A stretch of 64,000 nucleotides of DNA from assembly GCA_910587955.1 (NCBI GenBank), contig CAJUNN010000005.1, positions 7,268-71,267 on the forward strand. The letters are read 5' to 3'. The notes under the pieces were generated by a model that worked only from the letters and a program-made list of their open reading frames with translations, was not told the origin of the DNA and did no database searches. The stretch's first letter is position 1, and each line of letters opens with the position of its first letter. Below are positions 14,437 to 63,848 of this stretch, in pieces. This DNA is from an uncultured Lachnospiraceae bacterium (GTDB lineage: Bacteria; Bacillota; Clostridia; Lachnospirales; Lachnospiraceae). A program made the position numbers and the translations under genes.

Positions 14437-14660
14437 CATTACTAGTTCCGCATACGCCCTCCCTGCGCTCCTTCCCTAGAAAGACTTCCGGCCACACAAA
14501 CATGCGTCCGTAACTCTTTCTATGCGCTGTTCGGGCTTCTGCTGTTTCCAGTTCCGCATACGCCCTCCCTGCGCTCCTTCCCTAGAAAGACTTCCGGCCG
14601 CACAAACATGCGTCCGCAACTCTTTCTATGCGCTGTTCGGGCTCCTGCTGTTTTCAGTTC
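14437..14660 (-). repeat. Two near-identical tandem units (about 105 nt) of the dispersed structured repeat
   Basis: The sequence (c/t)agttccgcatacgccctccctgcgctccttccctagaaagacttccggcc(a/g)cacaaacatgcgtccg(t/c)aactctttctatgcgctgttcgggct(t/c)ctgctgttt is repeated twice. It fills the gap between the Cof hydrolase stop and glgB. Confidence 0.85.
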
Positions 14661-17526: not shown

Positions 17527-18264
17527 TCAGCCAGCCGAACCGCGCAGAAGCGCCTCCAGCTCCTCCATTTCTTTTTGGGTAACTTTGCGCCAGGTCCCCG
17601 GTTTCATGCCTTTCAGTTCAATGTTCAGAATCCGGATCCGCTTCAAAGATACCACCTCAAACCCCAGGGTCCCGCACATTCTGCGGATCTGCCGGTTCAG
17701 CCCCTGGGTGAGAATTATGCGGAAATCAAACCTCCCGGTTTTTTCCACCTGACAGGGCCTGGTCACAGCATCCAGAAGTACCTTTCCCTGCTCCGCTTTC
17801 CGGATGCGTACCCCCTTTCTCATCCGCTCCAGAAACTCTTCCGTCACCGGCCGGTCGACCGTGACCAGATACTCCTTTTCGTGGTAATTGGAGGCTTTCA
17901 TGATCCGGTTAACCAGGCTCCCGTCGTTGGTCATTAAAATCAATCCTTCTGAATCTTTATCCAGCCTTCCCACCGGATAGACCCGGATGGGATATCCCAC
18001 AAAATCCACAATATTGCGCCGCTCCCGCCGATCCGCAGTGCTAACCACTCCGGGGGGCTTATAGACCGCCAGCAAAATCCGCTCCTCCCGGCTTTCCACG
18101 GCTTTTCCGTCCACCGCAACCTCCTGTTCCCGCCGGATCCGCATTCCGGTCACTGCAGGGTTTCCGTCCACCGTCACCTTCCCCGCCTCTATCAGTCTGT
18201 CCGCCTCCCGGCGGGAACATACGCCCGCCTCGCTTAAGTATTTATTTAAGCGTACTTCTTCCAT
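17527..18264 (-). CDS. rRNA pseudouridine synthase, RsuA/RluB/RluF family (S4 domain plus catalytic domain)
   Basis: S4 motif RLNKYLSEAGVCSRREADRLI and catalytic GRLDKDSEGLILMTNDG. The start is set at MEEVRLNKY (ATG at 18262-18264, SD AAGAGGA). Confidence 0.85.
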   Translation of the reverse strand: MEEVRLNKYLSEAGVCSRREADRLIEAGKVTVDGNPAVTGMRIRREQEVAVDGKAVESREERILLAVYKPPGVVSTADRRERRNIVDFVGYPIRVYPVGRLDKDSEGLILMTNDGSLVNRIMKASNYHEKEYLVTVDRPVTEEFLERMRKGVRIRKAEQGKVLLDAVTRPCQVEKTGRFDFRIILTQGLNRQIRRMCGTLGFEVVSLKRIRILNIELKGMKPGTWRKVTQKEMEELEALLRGSAG

Positions 18265-18278
18265 AATGAGAATCCTCT

Positions 18279-19073
18279 TTACTTTCCTAAACATGACATC
18301 ACGTGATTCCAAAACGACTCTTTAAAATATTCCAAAAGAAACAGGGGGATCCCGTTCAAAATGCCCACCACACGGTTGAAACATACAAAATGGTCCCACT
18401 GTGCCTCGTAAATCTTGGCCTGTGTCAGATTTTGCAAAAATTCTCTATATGTAGGTATGGACTCCTTGTAATCTACAATCAAATGAGCCCGTTTTACCGA
18501 AGCCCGGCAGGCCACTTCCCAGCGTTCTCTCGAGATCCGGCGGAAATCCCGGAATTCCAGTTCTTCCGCCACCTCCCGCTTATACGCTTCTCCCACATCC
18601 AGGGAAACATAAAAATTTCTGTAATCTTCAGTTTCGCTGTGGATCTCCCGCAGGGATTCTACCATGGGATAAGAAATATACAGTTTACCGTTTTCCGTCT
18701 CATTATCAAAGGTATCCAACAATTCCCGGATCACATTCCGGCTTCGATATTTTAAAGGAAGATTATTGTTGTGGGCATCGTAGTCAAAAAACAAATATAC
18801 CTCCGAAAAATCTCTGGATGAATACCCTTCCAAAAGCTTTCCTGCTTCCGGACTCATTTCTCGGACTACATCGATAACATCAATAGAAAAATTATTTTCC
18901 CTAAGCTTATTCCAGATCATATAAATGTTTCCACAGGCAGGGAAAGAAATCACCACGGTCTCCGCCACCTCCCGGAAAAACACTTCCTGCATTTTTTCCA
19001 CCAGCGTTTTTTCTGTTTTTTCCCCTTCGTAAATGATAGCAATGTGATTTCTTCTATTTCTCATCAAATGCAC
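18279..19073 (-). CDS. RloB-like / Toprim-like putative nuclease, partner of the upstream ATPase
   Basis: N-terminal IAIIYEGEKTE (as I recall it, the RloB hallmark is CEGxxTE) and a later acidic LFFDYD (DxD-like), which fits a Toprim Glu + DxD arrangement. It overlaps the ATPase gene by 11-20 nt. Local GC is about 40% against about 55% in the flanks. Confidence 0.55.
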   Translation of the reverse strand: MHLMRNRRNHIAIIYEGEKTEKTLVEKMQEVFFREVAETVVISFPACGNIYMIWNKLRENNFSIDVIDVVREMSPEAGKLLEGYSSRDFSEVYLFFDYDAHNNNLPLKYRSRNVIRELLDTFDNETENGKLYISYPMVESLREIHSETEDYRNFYVSLDVGEAYKREVAEELEFRDFRRISRERWEVACRASVKRAHLIVDYKESIPTYREFLQNLTQAKIYEAQWDHFVCFNRVVGILNGIPLFLLEYFKESFWNHVMSCLGK

Positions 19074-20160
19074 CCGCTTTATACATCTTCTGTATATTGT
19101 GAGCCTGCCGCAGGGCTTTCACTGTACGGTCTGCAAAAGAACTGATTTGATTATCTTTAAGCTCAAAATAACAGTCTGGCCGAAGCAGTTCATTGCTAAT
19201 CAGATCCGTGTTGTGGGATGTAAAAATAATCTGTGCTTCCAGAGAAACTAGCTTCCGGACCACAGCCTCCGCCAATTCATAATGATAAAATGCGTCAAAC
19301 TCGTCAATAAATACGAAAGACATTTCTTTCATCTGCAAATACCACAAAAAGAGGAATGCAAGCGCCCTGGTCCCGCTGGACCACACATCCTGGAAAAGAA
19401 CTGCTTTATTCTTATGAATGCAGTAAAGGTTTTTATCTTCCTCATCCTCTCCCACTGTCAATTTTACGTCAATTCCGAAATCATGAAGAAACTCCTGAAG
19501 CTCCTCCACCGCATCCATCTCCACAAGGTTCTTTCCGATGCTCCCTATCCGGTTACAATATCCCGCATAGCAACTTCCTTCTGCGCTGCTAAACCAAAGC
19601 ATCCGCTCCACAAACTGTACGAACTGCAGAAAAGTCCTGCTGTCCGCATCACTCTTATCCGGCACAGTATTTCTAGCTACATACTTCACCAAGGAAATGG
19701 AACCATCCCACAGCTCCAAATTTAGCTGTTCCGTTCCTTTTAAGCTGACTTTTGCTTCGCATCCCTGATCTGCAGACAGCACTTCCCGGTGATTGATAGT
19801 TATTTTTTCCCTTAATACCTTTTCCGGCTCTTCCTTCTCATAGTAATAAGTCAGAATATTTGAATCAAAGCAAAAGACATATTCAAAGCGGACCAGGCGA
19901 TCGTTTCCGTCCAAATTCATATAATGCCGTCTTTGTTTCAGCACATTATGGGAAGTATCCGTAAGATGAAGCAGTAAATCCATCATTGCATATCCCAAAT
20001 TTGACTTTCCGGACGCATTCTCCCCATATACAATGGCATTTTTCAAAATTCCTCCAGGCACAAGGTTTTCGTGAAATTCGTAATTTTTTACATTGCTCAA
20101 ATCCCAGACAAACTCATCTCGGAAATTTCGGTAATTCTGCACCTTAAACTTTTGCAGCAT
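19054..20160 (-). CDS. ABC-type AAA ATPase (AAA_15/AAA_21-like; AriA/AbiLi/PtuA-like architecture)
   Basis: Walker A GENASGKSN, ABC signature-like SSGTRAL, Walker B FVFIDEFD and H-loop TSHN. The N-terminus MLQKFKVQNYRNF is typical of SMC/RecF-like defence ATPases. The start is set at the ATG at 20158-20160, preceded by GGGGGTGAAAAG. Confidence 0.7.
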   Translation of the reverse strand: MLQKFKVQNYRNFRDEFVWDLSNVKNYEFHENLVPGGILKNAIVYGENASGKSNLGYAMMDLLLHLTDTSHNVLKQRRHYMNLDGNDRLVRFEYVFCFDSNILTYYYEKEEPEKVLREKITINHREVLSADQGCEAKVSLKGTEQLNLELWDGSISLVKYVARNTVPDKSDADSRTFLQFVQFVERMLWFSSAEGSCYAGYCNRIGSIGKNLVEMDAVEELQEFLHDFGIDVKLTVGEDEEDKNLYCIHKNKAVLFQDVWSSGTRALAFLFLWYLQMKEMSFVFIDEFDAFYHYELAEAVVRKLVSLEAQIIFTSHNTDLISNELLRPDCYFELKDNQISSFADRTVKALRQAHNIQKMYKAGAFDEK

Positions 20161-20278
20161 CTTTTCACCCCCTATTTCTTTTAGCATAGCACACCCCATT
20201 CATTTTCTCAATCTATTTTGTGCTTTTCCTACGCTGTCTATGCAATTTTTTTACACTTATGGAGAAATCTTTTTACAA

Positions 20279-20313
20279 CGAGAAACGATGCAGCCATGGC
20301 TACATCGTTTCTA
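20279..20313 (-). terminator. Hairpin downstream of gdhA; probable terminator with a weak U-tract
   Basis: gaaacgatgcagc catg gctacatcgtttc forms a 13-bp stem with one G-U/mismatch. The trailing sequence on the minus strand is TCGTTGTAAAAAG. Confidence 0.4.
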
Positions 20314-20351
20314 CAAAACAACTCCTGTTTTCTTTTCGGAATAACTACTTC

Positions 20352-22293
<1,942 letters not shown>

Positions 22294-25833: not shown

Positions 25834-25880
25834 ACTTCATGGTGCAAGGTTTATCTCCTTTCGCGCCGCATACATTTTTT

Positions 25881-25953
25881 GCATCTGTAGCTCAGTGGAT
25901 AGAGCACTGGCCTCCGACGCCAGGTGCCGCTAGTTCGAATCTAGTCAGATGCA
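25881..25953 (+). tRNA. tRNA-Arg (anticodon CCG); CCA not encoded
   Basis: Folded by hand as a cloverleaf: acceptor GCATCTG/CAGATGC, D arm GCTC/GAGC, anticodon stem CTGGC/GCCAG with loop CTCCGAC, and T arm GCTAG-TTCGAAT-CTAGT. Confidence 0.9.
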
Positions 25954-25958
25954 GCTAA

Positions 25959-35116: not shown

Positions 35117-35262
35117 ATATCTTGTCCCCCTATTCCAGTTCCCCTATTCTAGTTCCGCATACGCCCTCCAGGCACCCCTCCCTTAGAAAGAATTTCAGCC
35201 GTAAAAATACACGGCCGCAATTCTTTCTGGGCGCCTTCCGGGCTTCTGCTGTTTTGATTATA
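35117..35262 (-). repeat. One unit of the dispersed structured repeat with a duplicated SD-tail motif
   Basis: The minus-strand end reads GCGGAACTAGAATAGGGGAACTGGAATAGGGGGACAAGATATATG. The body tagaaagaatttcagccg...cggccgcaattctttct forms the central hairpin. Confidence 0.75.
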
Positions 35263-58959: not shown

Positions 58960-59196
58960 CACATAAGTAAAGATCCGCACGCAAAGCGGATCTTTCCCTC
59001 TCTTTATCAGAACCGCTTTCCTCGGAAGCCTGTCTAACCCGCACAGAAAGCAGGTTTCCTGACTTACAGTTCTTTGCTTGGCCGCCCCTTCTCACGCTTC
59101 TGGCGCAATGGTTTCTTCGGACCTCACTCCCTGAATACAGTGACCGGATCGTTTGGGGCTCTCACCCAATTCCCTTTTCTGTGCCTTTTGGCACAC
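58960..59196 (-). promoter_or_regulatory. Cobalt/cobalamin-sensing riboswitch (aptamer about 59041-59184) with a terminator-like expression platform
   Basis: The minus strand reads GCACAGAAAAGGGAATTGGGTGAGAGCCCC...CCGGTCACTGTA...GTAAGTCAGGAAACCTGCTTTCTGTGC. P1 is CACAGAAAG/CTTTCTGTG, and the B12-box-like AGTCAGGAAACCTGC is present. A downstream hairpin AAAGATCCGC-tttgcgt-GCGGATCTTT (about 58962-58995) follows. Confidence 0.85.
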
Positions 59197-59237
59197 ACTT
59201 TCTGCTCTTCATAAATTTCTTTTTGATCTTTTTTAAC

Positions 59238-63490: not shown

Positions 63491-63848
63491 ACTATTGGGT
63501 CCTCCTATTCCAGTTCCGCAGAAATCCCTTCAGCACCCTTCCTGTAGAAAGACTTCCGGCCGCGCTGCGTCCGTAATTCTTTCTGGGCGCTGCTTGGATT
63601 TCTGCTGTTTTTGATTCCAGTTCCGCAGAAATCCCTTCCAACACCCTTCCTATAGAAGAATTTACAGCCGCCAGGCGCCTGCAAATCCTTCTGGGCGTTG
63701 TACGGGTTTCTGCTGTTTTTTTGATTCTAATTCCCAGTTCCGCAGAAATCCCTTCAGCACCCTTCCTGTAGAAAGACTTCCGGCCGCGCTGCGTCCGTAA
63801 TTCTTTCCGGGCGCTGCTTGGATTTCTGCTGTTTTTGATTCCAGTTAA
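63491..63848 (-). repeat. Three tandem units (about 107-123 nt) of the dispersed structured repeat, forming the serC leader
   Basis: Units lie at about 63507-63613, 63614-63723 and 63724-63846, each starting att(c)cagttccgcagaaatccc and ending ttctgctgttttt(tt)g. Units 1 and 3 differ by about 1 nt over their shared length, and unit 2 is diverged. Confidence 0.9.

Follow-up and report, generated by a model that had tools for sequence, protein, structure and literature searches.

We wanted to understand what two overlapping genes of low GC content represent at a site between the housekeeping genes gdhA and rluB of an uncultured Lachnospiraceae bacterium. The pair lies in a 64,000-nucleotide (nt) stretch of contig CAJUNN010000005.1, termed here the window, whose positions are used for all coordinates below unless another genome is named. 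The original prediction had read the two genes as an ATP-binding cassette (ABC)-type ATPase, here gene A, followed by an RloB/Toprim-like protein, here gene B, and had proposed a PARIS/AbiL-like anti-phage system. We found that the pair is almost certainly a member of PDC-M12, a family named in PADLOC. The best explanation of the locus, to which we assign a probability of roughly 0.6, is a self-contained, horizontally acquired PDC-M12 cassette that encodes a sensor ATPase and a nuclease effector of the PARIS/AbiL class.

Assignment of the pair to the PDC-M12 family

Comparison with the PADLOC profiles revealed that A matched PDC-M12A (PDLC04426) with E = 3e-132 and 439.5 bits, residues 14-380 of its long open reading frame (ORF) aligning with profile positions 1-369 of 369, and that B matched PDC-M12B (PDLC04430) with E = 1.5e-71, residues 3-259 aligning with positions 5-247 of 251. 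The gene order of PDC-M12 was also found, with A followed by an adjacent B and both on the minus strand. Weaker PADLOC matches of A were to AbiLi (E = 1.2e-41), AriA (E = 9e-17, partial), mad3 and HEC-01A, and B showed a marginal match to AbiLii. The full-length PDC-M12A and PDC-M12B matches, together with the AbiLi match of A, bear out the proposal that the pair is a candidate defence system of PARIS/AbiL-like type. In NCBIfam, no model was found for A or B. The PDC set comprises 145 untested 'phage defence candidates' in PADLOC-DB v2 (Payne et al. 2024 preprint, 10.1101/2024.01.29.577857), which were predicted on the basis of instances embedded inside BREX, DISARM or type I restriction-modification (R-M) loci (10.1101/2024.01.29.577857). 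PDC-M12 is the multi-gene candidate numbered 12 in this set. Because the candidate family was already catalogued and the pair falls outside PARIS, AbiL (on the AbiLii side) and OLD/Gabija, it is not a new kind of system, and it is less novel than had been implied.

Relatives collected at E <= 0.001 and counted as 90%-identity cluster representatives numbered 1,762 for the B type and 4,902 for the A type, and came mostly from gut-type Lachnospiraceae, Clostridiales and Muribaculum samples. Since these relatives are many and conserved over their full length, A and B are real genes rather than chance ORFs. The longest ORF of A runs from 20199 to 19054 and ends in a TAG at 19056-19054; its probable start is the ATG at 20160, giving 368 residues, because a ribosome-binding site (GGGGGTGA) precedes this codon and the PADLOC profile alignment begins there. 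The longest ORF of B runs from a GTG, 19073-18279, with a probable start at the ATG at 19064 (261 residues) and a TAA stop at 18281-18279, which lies 14 nt short of the rluB ATG at 18264. Counted from the ATG of B the two genes overlap by 11 nt, and from its GTG by 20 nt, in agreement with the predicted arrangement of two minus-strand genes that overlap by 11-20 nt between gdhA and a pseudouridine synthase gene.

The ATPase and its RloB-like partner

We found that A is a Rad50/SMC-head-type ABC ATPase, in line with the ABC/SMC-like ATPase that had been proposed. It passed the Pfam gathering cut-offs of both AAA_21 (57.9 bits against 27) and AAA_15 (37.0 bits against 32.1), and a Foldseek search with its AlphaFold 2 (AF2) model, which has a predicted local distance difference test score (pLDDT) of 86, returned Rad50 (4.3e-11), retron/Septu PtuA (2.5e-10) and SMC heads (~1e-8). 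Among PDB sequences the nearest were SMC heads (1.3e-3) and AriA (2.3e-3). All of the motifs quoted in the original prediction are present, namely GENASGKSN, SSGTRAL, FVFIDEFD and TSHN in A and IAIIYEGEKTE and LFFDYD in B; the invariance of the A motif residues listed in Table 1 was judged over 34-36 homologues. The protein is compact, without a long coiled coil, and its insert consists of a beta-rich region and short helices. Furthermore, the C-terminal tail of A contains the invariant residues T346, K348, R351, H354, N355, K358, M359, Y360, G363 and F365, and residues 358-368 were modelled at a pLDDT below 50. Such a combination of invariance and low model confidence is what is typically seen where a peptide folds onto a partner, suggesting that the tail is a candidate partner-binding peptide and might form the A-B interface.

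The SMC/Rad50 type of head fold would also suit a role in inter-element competition, in which a minimal SMC-like ATPase, together with a Toprim nuclease, would cleave plasmid or other mobile DNA as it enters the cell, loosely in the manner of Wadjet JetC/JetD or Gabija. The carriers of the pair described below are themselves mobile (small plasmids, inoviruses and temperate phages), and the Toprim nucleases of Gabija and OLD act on DNA (PMC11464382), both of which are consistent with such a role. However, loop-extrusion sensing requires a long coiled coil and a hinge, both of which A lacks at only 368 residues, no JetA/JetB-like partners accompany the pair, and the next-best PADLOC matches after PDC-M12 are AbiLi and AriA rather than Wadjet or Lamassu. 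We therefore regard competition of this kind as quite improbable.

B can be described as an RloB-like protein, albeit a divergent one, whose active-site pattern is Toprim-style, and as a putative nuclease. Across 68 diverse representatives sharing ~30% identity, residues E13, G14, D94, G126, P133, M134, E136 and K162 are invariant, and E18, D62, D96, E122, T123 and K127 are conserved at >= 90%; E122, K127 and E136 lie in the cluster around beta-4. The AF2 model of B has a pLDDT of 90.5 and a predicted template-modelling score of 0.90, and shows a family-specific C-terminal helical domain at residues 179-257. The putative catalytic Glu and the DxD stand at the ends of beta-1 and beta-3, a placement that is the one published for Toprim and RloB (PMC12065111), and RloB, which has the same Glu and DxD, has been classed in the Toprim superfamily (PMC12065111; PMC10440598). 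The match of B to RloB spans residues 9-137 and covers the first ~110 of 195 profile positions. RloB was also touched by 21 of 40 close relatives of B and by 18 of the 68 diverse representatives, all of them below threshold, the best score in the family being 31.2 bits against a cut-off of 31.5. DUF4435 and Toprim_Old gave no match for B (E up to 1), none in the 40 close relatives (E <= 0.01) and none in the 68 diverse members (E <= 0.001).

In addition, the sole significant structural match of B was to a phage protein annotated as 'RloB-like protein' (BFVD A0A8S5LTA7; E = 4.9e-4, probability 1.00, TM-score 0.38-0.45). A Toprim fold of B is thus supported by the placement of its motifs, by weak RloB profile and fold matches and by the published analyses of RloB. 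The prediction that B is RloB-like rather than DUF4435-like therefore held in direction, although the RloB match is weak, and the predicted Toprim-like Glu and DxD are conserved in position, although the fold is unconfirmed against solved structures. Sub-threshold matches to a further Pfam family, DUF5085, occurred in 12 of the 40 close homologues of B, at residues ~109-166 over the region with the family pattern NETExGKLYISYPMVE (at best E = 1.5e-5 and 25.9 bits, the cut-off being 30), and there may be an unrecognised relationship between DUF5085 and the Toprim-like core of B.

An accessory and mobile cassette

The pair is flanked on one side by gdhA (an ELFV dehydrogenase gene) and on the other by rluB (a pseudouridine synthase gene with S4 and PseudoU_synth_2 domains) followed by ligA, and genes for a Cof-type hydrolase and glgB are further housekeeping neighbours. 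As predicted, no integrase, methylase or phage genes were found within ~8 kb on either side. The dip in GC content at A/B is real: the pair has a GC content of 42.3% compared with 56.0% for rluB and 55.4% for gdhA, values along 18400-20400 are 0.38-0.46 against 0.53-0.57 in the adjacent genes, and GC at third codon positions (GC3) is 0.47-0.48 in the pair against 0.65-0.67 in rluB and gdhA. The contrast of about 40% with about 55% that had been estimated by eye thus stands for the pair and its immediate neighbours, whereas the 10-kb flanks have a GC content of 50-52% and the whole window 52.4%.

The interval between rluB and gdhA was compared in related genomes, a check that the original prediction had proposed. 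Two sister genomes, L012 and L015, keep the gdhA...rluB-ligA synteny without A or B; identity to the window is 99% for gdhA, 92% for rluB and 92% for ligA in L012, and 95% for gdhA in L015. Homology to L012 stops at 20353, the gdhA stop, and restarts at 18286, where 22 nt remain to the rluB ATG; between these breakpoints the window has a 2,066-bp segment and L012 a different one of 1,308 bp. The L012 slot holds a gene for a 338-residue protein on the opposite strand to A/B (L012 5765-6781, minus strand) that is weakly Rpn-like, that is, related to recombination-promoting nuclease/putative transposase proteins (TIGR01784, 27.3 bits, under the cut-off of 52.1), and the L015 slot holds an Acyl_transf_3 gene split into two ORFs (L015 5918-7023, plus strand). 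No direct repeats or att-like sites were found flanking the cassette. The cassette is accessory between species and horizontally acquired.

The swap also altered the surroundings of rluB. Homology to the sister genome restarts only 22 nt (18265-18286) before the rluB ATG, so that rluB lost its ancestral upstream region (compare L012 6782-7000). No terminator was found between B and rluB. Transcription of rluB now probably begins at the cassette promoter or inside B, and rluB is probably co-transcribed with the cassette. A promoter-like site lies ~25 nt upstream of the ribosome-binding site of A and within the swapped segment; such sites are no more numerous in the region than expected by chance, and its position alone is suggestive. 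An inverted repeat at the upstream edge of the cassette is likely the gdhA terminator.

We then examined the pair in other genomes. The order of A then B and their overlap were preserved while the flanks changed completely, and A was directly upstream of B in every other locus examined. In Fusobacterium vincentii the pair directly follows the BREX gene brxC (BrxC E = 0; PDC-M12A 1.3e-151; PDC-M12B 2.1e-85), on 4.0-4.4-kb mobilizable plasmids of Escherichia and Raoultella it is the sole cargo, and filamentous Vibrio phages carry it with the ATPase tagged 'Paris_II__AAA_21' by the depositor. A relative of B was found on 47 viral contigs of IMG/VR, with A directly upstream in 44 of them, and the other three start inside B at the contig end. 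Two tailed-phage contigs carry the pair as a moron between core phage modules, in one case between helicase and small-terminase genes and in the other between genes of head morphogenesis and the major capsid. The GC content of the pair was measured in seven loci and in each of them (7/7) lay 6-17 points under that of the surrounding DNA. The pairing is obligate down to ~25% identity.

These observations bear on whether A and B could instead be a housekeeping DNA-repair pair, comparable to RecF (ABC ATPase)/RecR (Toprim) or Rad50/Mre11. That A is about the size of RecF, that Rad50 is its best structural match and that ligA is among the neighbours are all compatible with repair. RecR has helix-hairpin-helix and zinc-finger features, however, which B appears to lack; sister species do not have the pair at the syntenic site, and it has GC and GC3 values atypical for its host, is carried on plasmids and phages and matches no NCBIfam housekeeping model. 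A RecF/RecR-like repair function was rejected on the basis of accessory distribution, composition and mobile-element carriage, and is highly improbable.

Decayed copies were also found. In L088 (7733-8780), a related bacterium, B is intact, with 65% identity and all invariant residues, but all that is left of A next to it is the final 92 residues (residues 277-368, 85% identical, with an internal Met start), which keep Walker B, the H-loop and the C-terminal tail. This state was seen on many contigs, downstream of gdhA, PadR and helix-turn-helix (HTH)/DUF6773 genes. In the L088 state, either B is non-toxic without full-length A or the tail of A is enough to restrain B. Conversely, L104 (8001-9700), a metagenome-assembled genome of Muribaculum sp., has an A homologue of 50% identity and a disrupted B, with residues 1-48 and 114-257 in different frames and the DxD-bearing segment missing. 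The presence of an A homologue in this Bacteroidota genome indicates transfer across phyla.

The carriage and decay of the pair are relevant to a toxin-antitoxin (TA) or addiction module, in which B would be the toxin, A its neutraliser, and stabilisation of the carrier element or locus the outcome, with no dedicated anti-phage role. Such a module would fit the small Escherichia plasmids on which the pair is the only cargo, and the loss of the rluB upstream region, with a gap of 14 nt and no terminator, could lock the cassette in place. A toxicity-neutralisation assay validated a pair from Clostridium algidicarnis in which the AAA partner neutralised an RloB-like toxin (PMC10440598), and the AbiLii homologue of Fusobacterium nucleatum is toxic in Escherichia coli (PMC3985639). 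However, the latter was not neutralised by its AbiLi, and the lactococcal AbiLi and AbiLii are not toxic (PMC3985639). Intact B persists with the 92-residue remnant of A on many contigs of the L088 lineage, and BREX embedding and carriage as a phage moron fit defence or competition better than stabilisation. Furthermore, TA and abortive infection are not mutually exclusive, and PARIS shows both (PMC13064643). An addiction module without an anti-phage role is therefore unlikely.

Table 1. Positions of the cassette, its genes and its conserved sites in the window
Feature	Position	Strand	Description
Variable segment (promoter-like site + A + B)	18287..20352	-	2,066 bp; differs from L012
Gene A	20160..19054	-	368-residue ABC-type (Rad50/SMC-head-like) ATPase; PADLOC PDC-M12A
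Gene B	19064..18279	-	261-residue RloB-like putative Toprim-type nuclease; PADLOC PDC-M12B
Walker A / P-loop GENASGKSN	19999..20025	-	A residues 46-54; G46, N48, G51, K52 invariant
ABC signature SSGTRAL	19360..19380	-	A residues 261-267; S261, G263, T264 invariant
Walker B + D-loop FVFIDEFD	19294..19317	-	A residues 282-289; D286, E287, F288, D289 invariant
H-loop TSHN	19210..19221	-	A residues 314-317; T314, H316, N317 invariant
C-terminal tail of A (...LRQAHNIQKMYKAGAF...)	19057..19125	-	A residues ~346-368; family-wide invariance
IAIIYEGEKTE	19011..19043	-	End of beta-1 of B (residues 7-13); Glu13 = putative Toprim catalytic Glu
LFFDYD	18777..18794	-	End of beta-3 of B (residues 88-94); D94-x-D96 = putative metal-binding DxD
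NETENGKLYISYPMVE (family pattern NETExGKLYISYPMVE)	18657..18704	-	Second conserved acidic/basic cluster of B, around beta-4
Lys162 of B	18579..18581	-	Invariant in 68 diverse representatives
Promoter-like site TTGAGA-17 nt-TATGCT (TG-extended)	20183..20211	-	Consensus scan
Inverted repeat, 16-nt arms	20281..20312	.	Just past gdhA stop; 94% complementary; likely gdhA terminator

Some other features of the window were recorded. Intergenic repeats with units of ~106-108 nt occur at 14444-14660, ~35127-35229 and 63507-63846 and are tandem, the first site having 2.0 copies (96% identity) and the last 3.1 copies (74%). Chance alone would give 0.17 occurrences of their core, TAGAAAGACTTCCGGCC, which is present 8 times, and because it is found in inverted pairs 29 nt apart the units are palindromic, like a repetitive extragenic palindromic (REP) element or a miniature inverted-repeat transposable element (MITE). 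A full-length cobalamin riboswitch lies at 59032-59217 on the minus strand (99.2 bits), and the sole tRNA of the window is a tRNA-Arg (CCG) at 25880-25955 on the plus strand.

Proposed function and relation to known systems

We consider a function of the cassette in defence or exclusion to be probable. Mobility and association with defence loci support the defence reading, as seen in the embedding next to BREX, the mini-plasmid cargo and the carriage by inoviruses and other phages. Several observations weigh on the other side. The sole Pfam family match of B, to RloB (PF13707), scores 16.6 bits, under the 31.5-bit gathering cut-off; its model found no significant Toprim match in the PDB with Foldseek, the best E value being 0.016 (GajA 0.4), and profile searches of PDB sequences with alignments of the B family returned nothing relevant. 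In the window the cassette is not within a defence island. Of the contigs that carry an identical rluB, the 24 longest all had the pair, with the same neighbours and no strain-level presence/absence; within this species-level lineage the pair looks fixed. (L001, which is 99.99% identical to the window, showed an apparent variant that was merely a different gene-caller start for B.) The lineages that retain one partner, L088 and L104, fit a simple toxin/antitoxin dependency poorly. In the literature searched, no phage-defence test of any PDC-M12 member was reported and the name 'PDC-M12' was absent, and in the literature that tests PDC or HEC candidates PDC-M12 is not among them. For HEC-01, a candidate that consists of a separate ATPase and Toprim protein, the original study saw no protection, and in another study a representative gave E. 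coli some protection (10.1101/2024.09.26.614923).

For the preferred reading of a PDC-M12 sensor-effector cassette, a mechanism can be drawn by analogy with PARIS (AriA/AriB), AbiL and RloAB (PMC11464382; PMC13064643), and its PARIS-like details are tentative, indeed somewhat doubtful. Translation of B would be coupled to that of A through the 11-nt overlap. An oligomer of A would hold the putative nuclease B inactive in a complex and act as the presumed sensor of infection, and B might then be released or activated by a trigger from a phage or plasmid, in combination with the binding or hydrolysis of ATP. Once active, B would cut nucleic acid by metal-dependent Glu/DxD chemistry, its predicted substrate being either tRNA or some other RNA, if B resembles PARIS, or DNA, if it resembles Gabija/OLD. 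Arrest or death of the infected cell would then keep the invader from spreading.

A different possibility is that PDC-M12 is not a PARIS/AbiL look-alike and forms a mechanistically distinct branch of ATPase + Toprim systems in which the peptide at the tail of A controls B. The substrate or activation mode of B may then be new among Toprim effectors. This possibility is kept in view by the lack of a solved-structure match for B despite a confident model, by its family-specific helical domain and by the extra invariant residues E122, E136 and K162. It is also kept in view by the minimal ABC head of A, without the coiled-coil scaffold of AriA and with an invariant unstructured tail, and by the L088 lineage, in which intact B occurs with only a 92-residue remnant of A that includes the tail. 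We regard a distinct branch as rather unlikely.

If PDC-M12 works as a defence or exclusion system, then it is a widespread one. The window adds to the family a clean chromosomal example that stands alone and has exactly defined insertion boundaries, a housekeeping intergenic slot between gdhA and rluB that takes different cargo in sister species, and evidence for the depth to which the pairing is obligate. The 4-kb Escherichia plasmids provide a native E. coli representative (NZ_CP023904.1, positions 897-2796) that is directly testable. For the field the result is incremental, being another module made up of an ABC ATPase plus a Toprim-class protein with no new principle.

AbiL, RloAB and PARIS have been grouped as ATPase + Toprim systems (PMC11464382; PMC13064643), and we compared the pair with each of them and with OLD and Gabija. 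PARIS likewise consists of a separate ABC ATPase (AriA) and a Toprim-class effector (AriB), often on mobile elements. A matched the AriA profiles in segments only (PDLC02980, 9e-17, best stretch residues 266-334), with no full-length match, and B gave no match to the DUF4435/Toprim_Old domain expected of AriB. AriA has 464 residues, with coiled-coil insertions that build a hexamer (PMC11464382), whereas A is ~100 residues shorter. OLD nucleases and Gabija GajA also combine an ABC ATPase with a Toprim nuclease that uses Glu and DxD metal chemistry, but both domains are fused in one polypeptide rather than encoded by two overlapping genes as here, which places the pair outside the OLD type. The RloA/RloB proteins found in Campylobacter type I R-M loci, and likewise the NetFlax toxin-antitoxin pairs D29 (AAA):D44 (RloB-like), couple an ATPase with an RloB-type protein within restriction loci (PMC13064643; PMC10440598). 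The likeness to them lies in RloB being the only Pfam family touched by the clade of B, below the gathering score.

AbiL of Lactococcus lactis (AbiLi/AbiLii) is likewise a bicistronic pair of an ABC ATPase and an RloB/Toprim-type protein. A matched AbiLi (PDLC02335) over profile positions 46-282 of 326 and qualifies as an AbiLi-type ATPase, whereas B matched AbiLii (PDLC02337) with only E = 7.7e-4 over positions 26-60 of 170 and does not qualify as AbiLii. The length of AbiLi/PARIS-i in a review superposition is 453 residues (PMC13064643) compared with 368 for A. A tblastn search of plasmids with A gave no Lactococcus record, and hence no direct alignment with AbiL. With PDC-M12 the pair shares the same profiles from end to end, the gene order and the adjacency, and the same description also fits the pairs of Fusobacterium, the E. 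coli mini-plasmids and the Vibrio inoviruses. The copy in the window stands alone between housekeeping genes rather than in a BREX, DISARM or R-M locus, and is structurally no different from the family.

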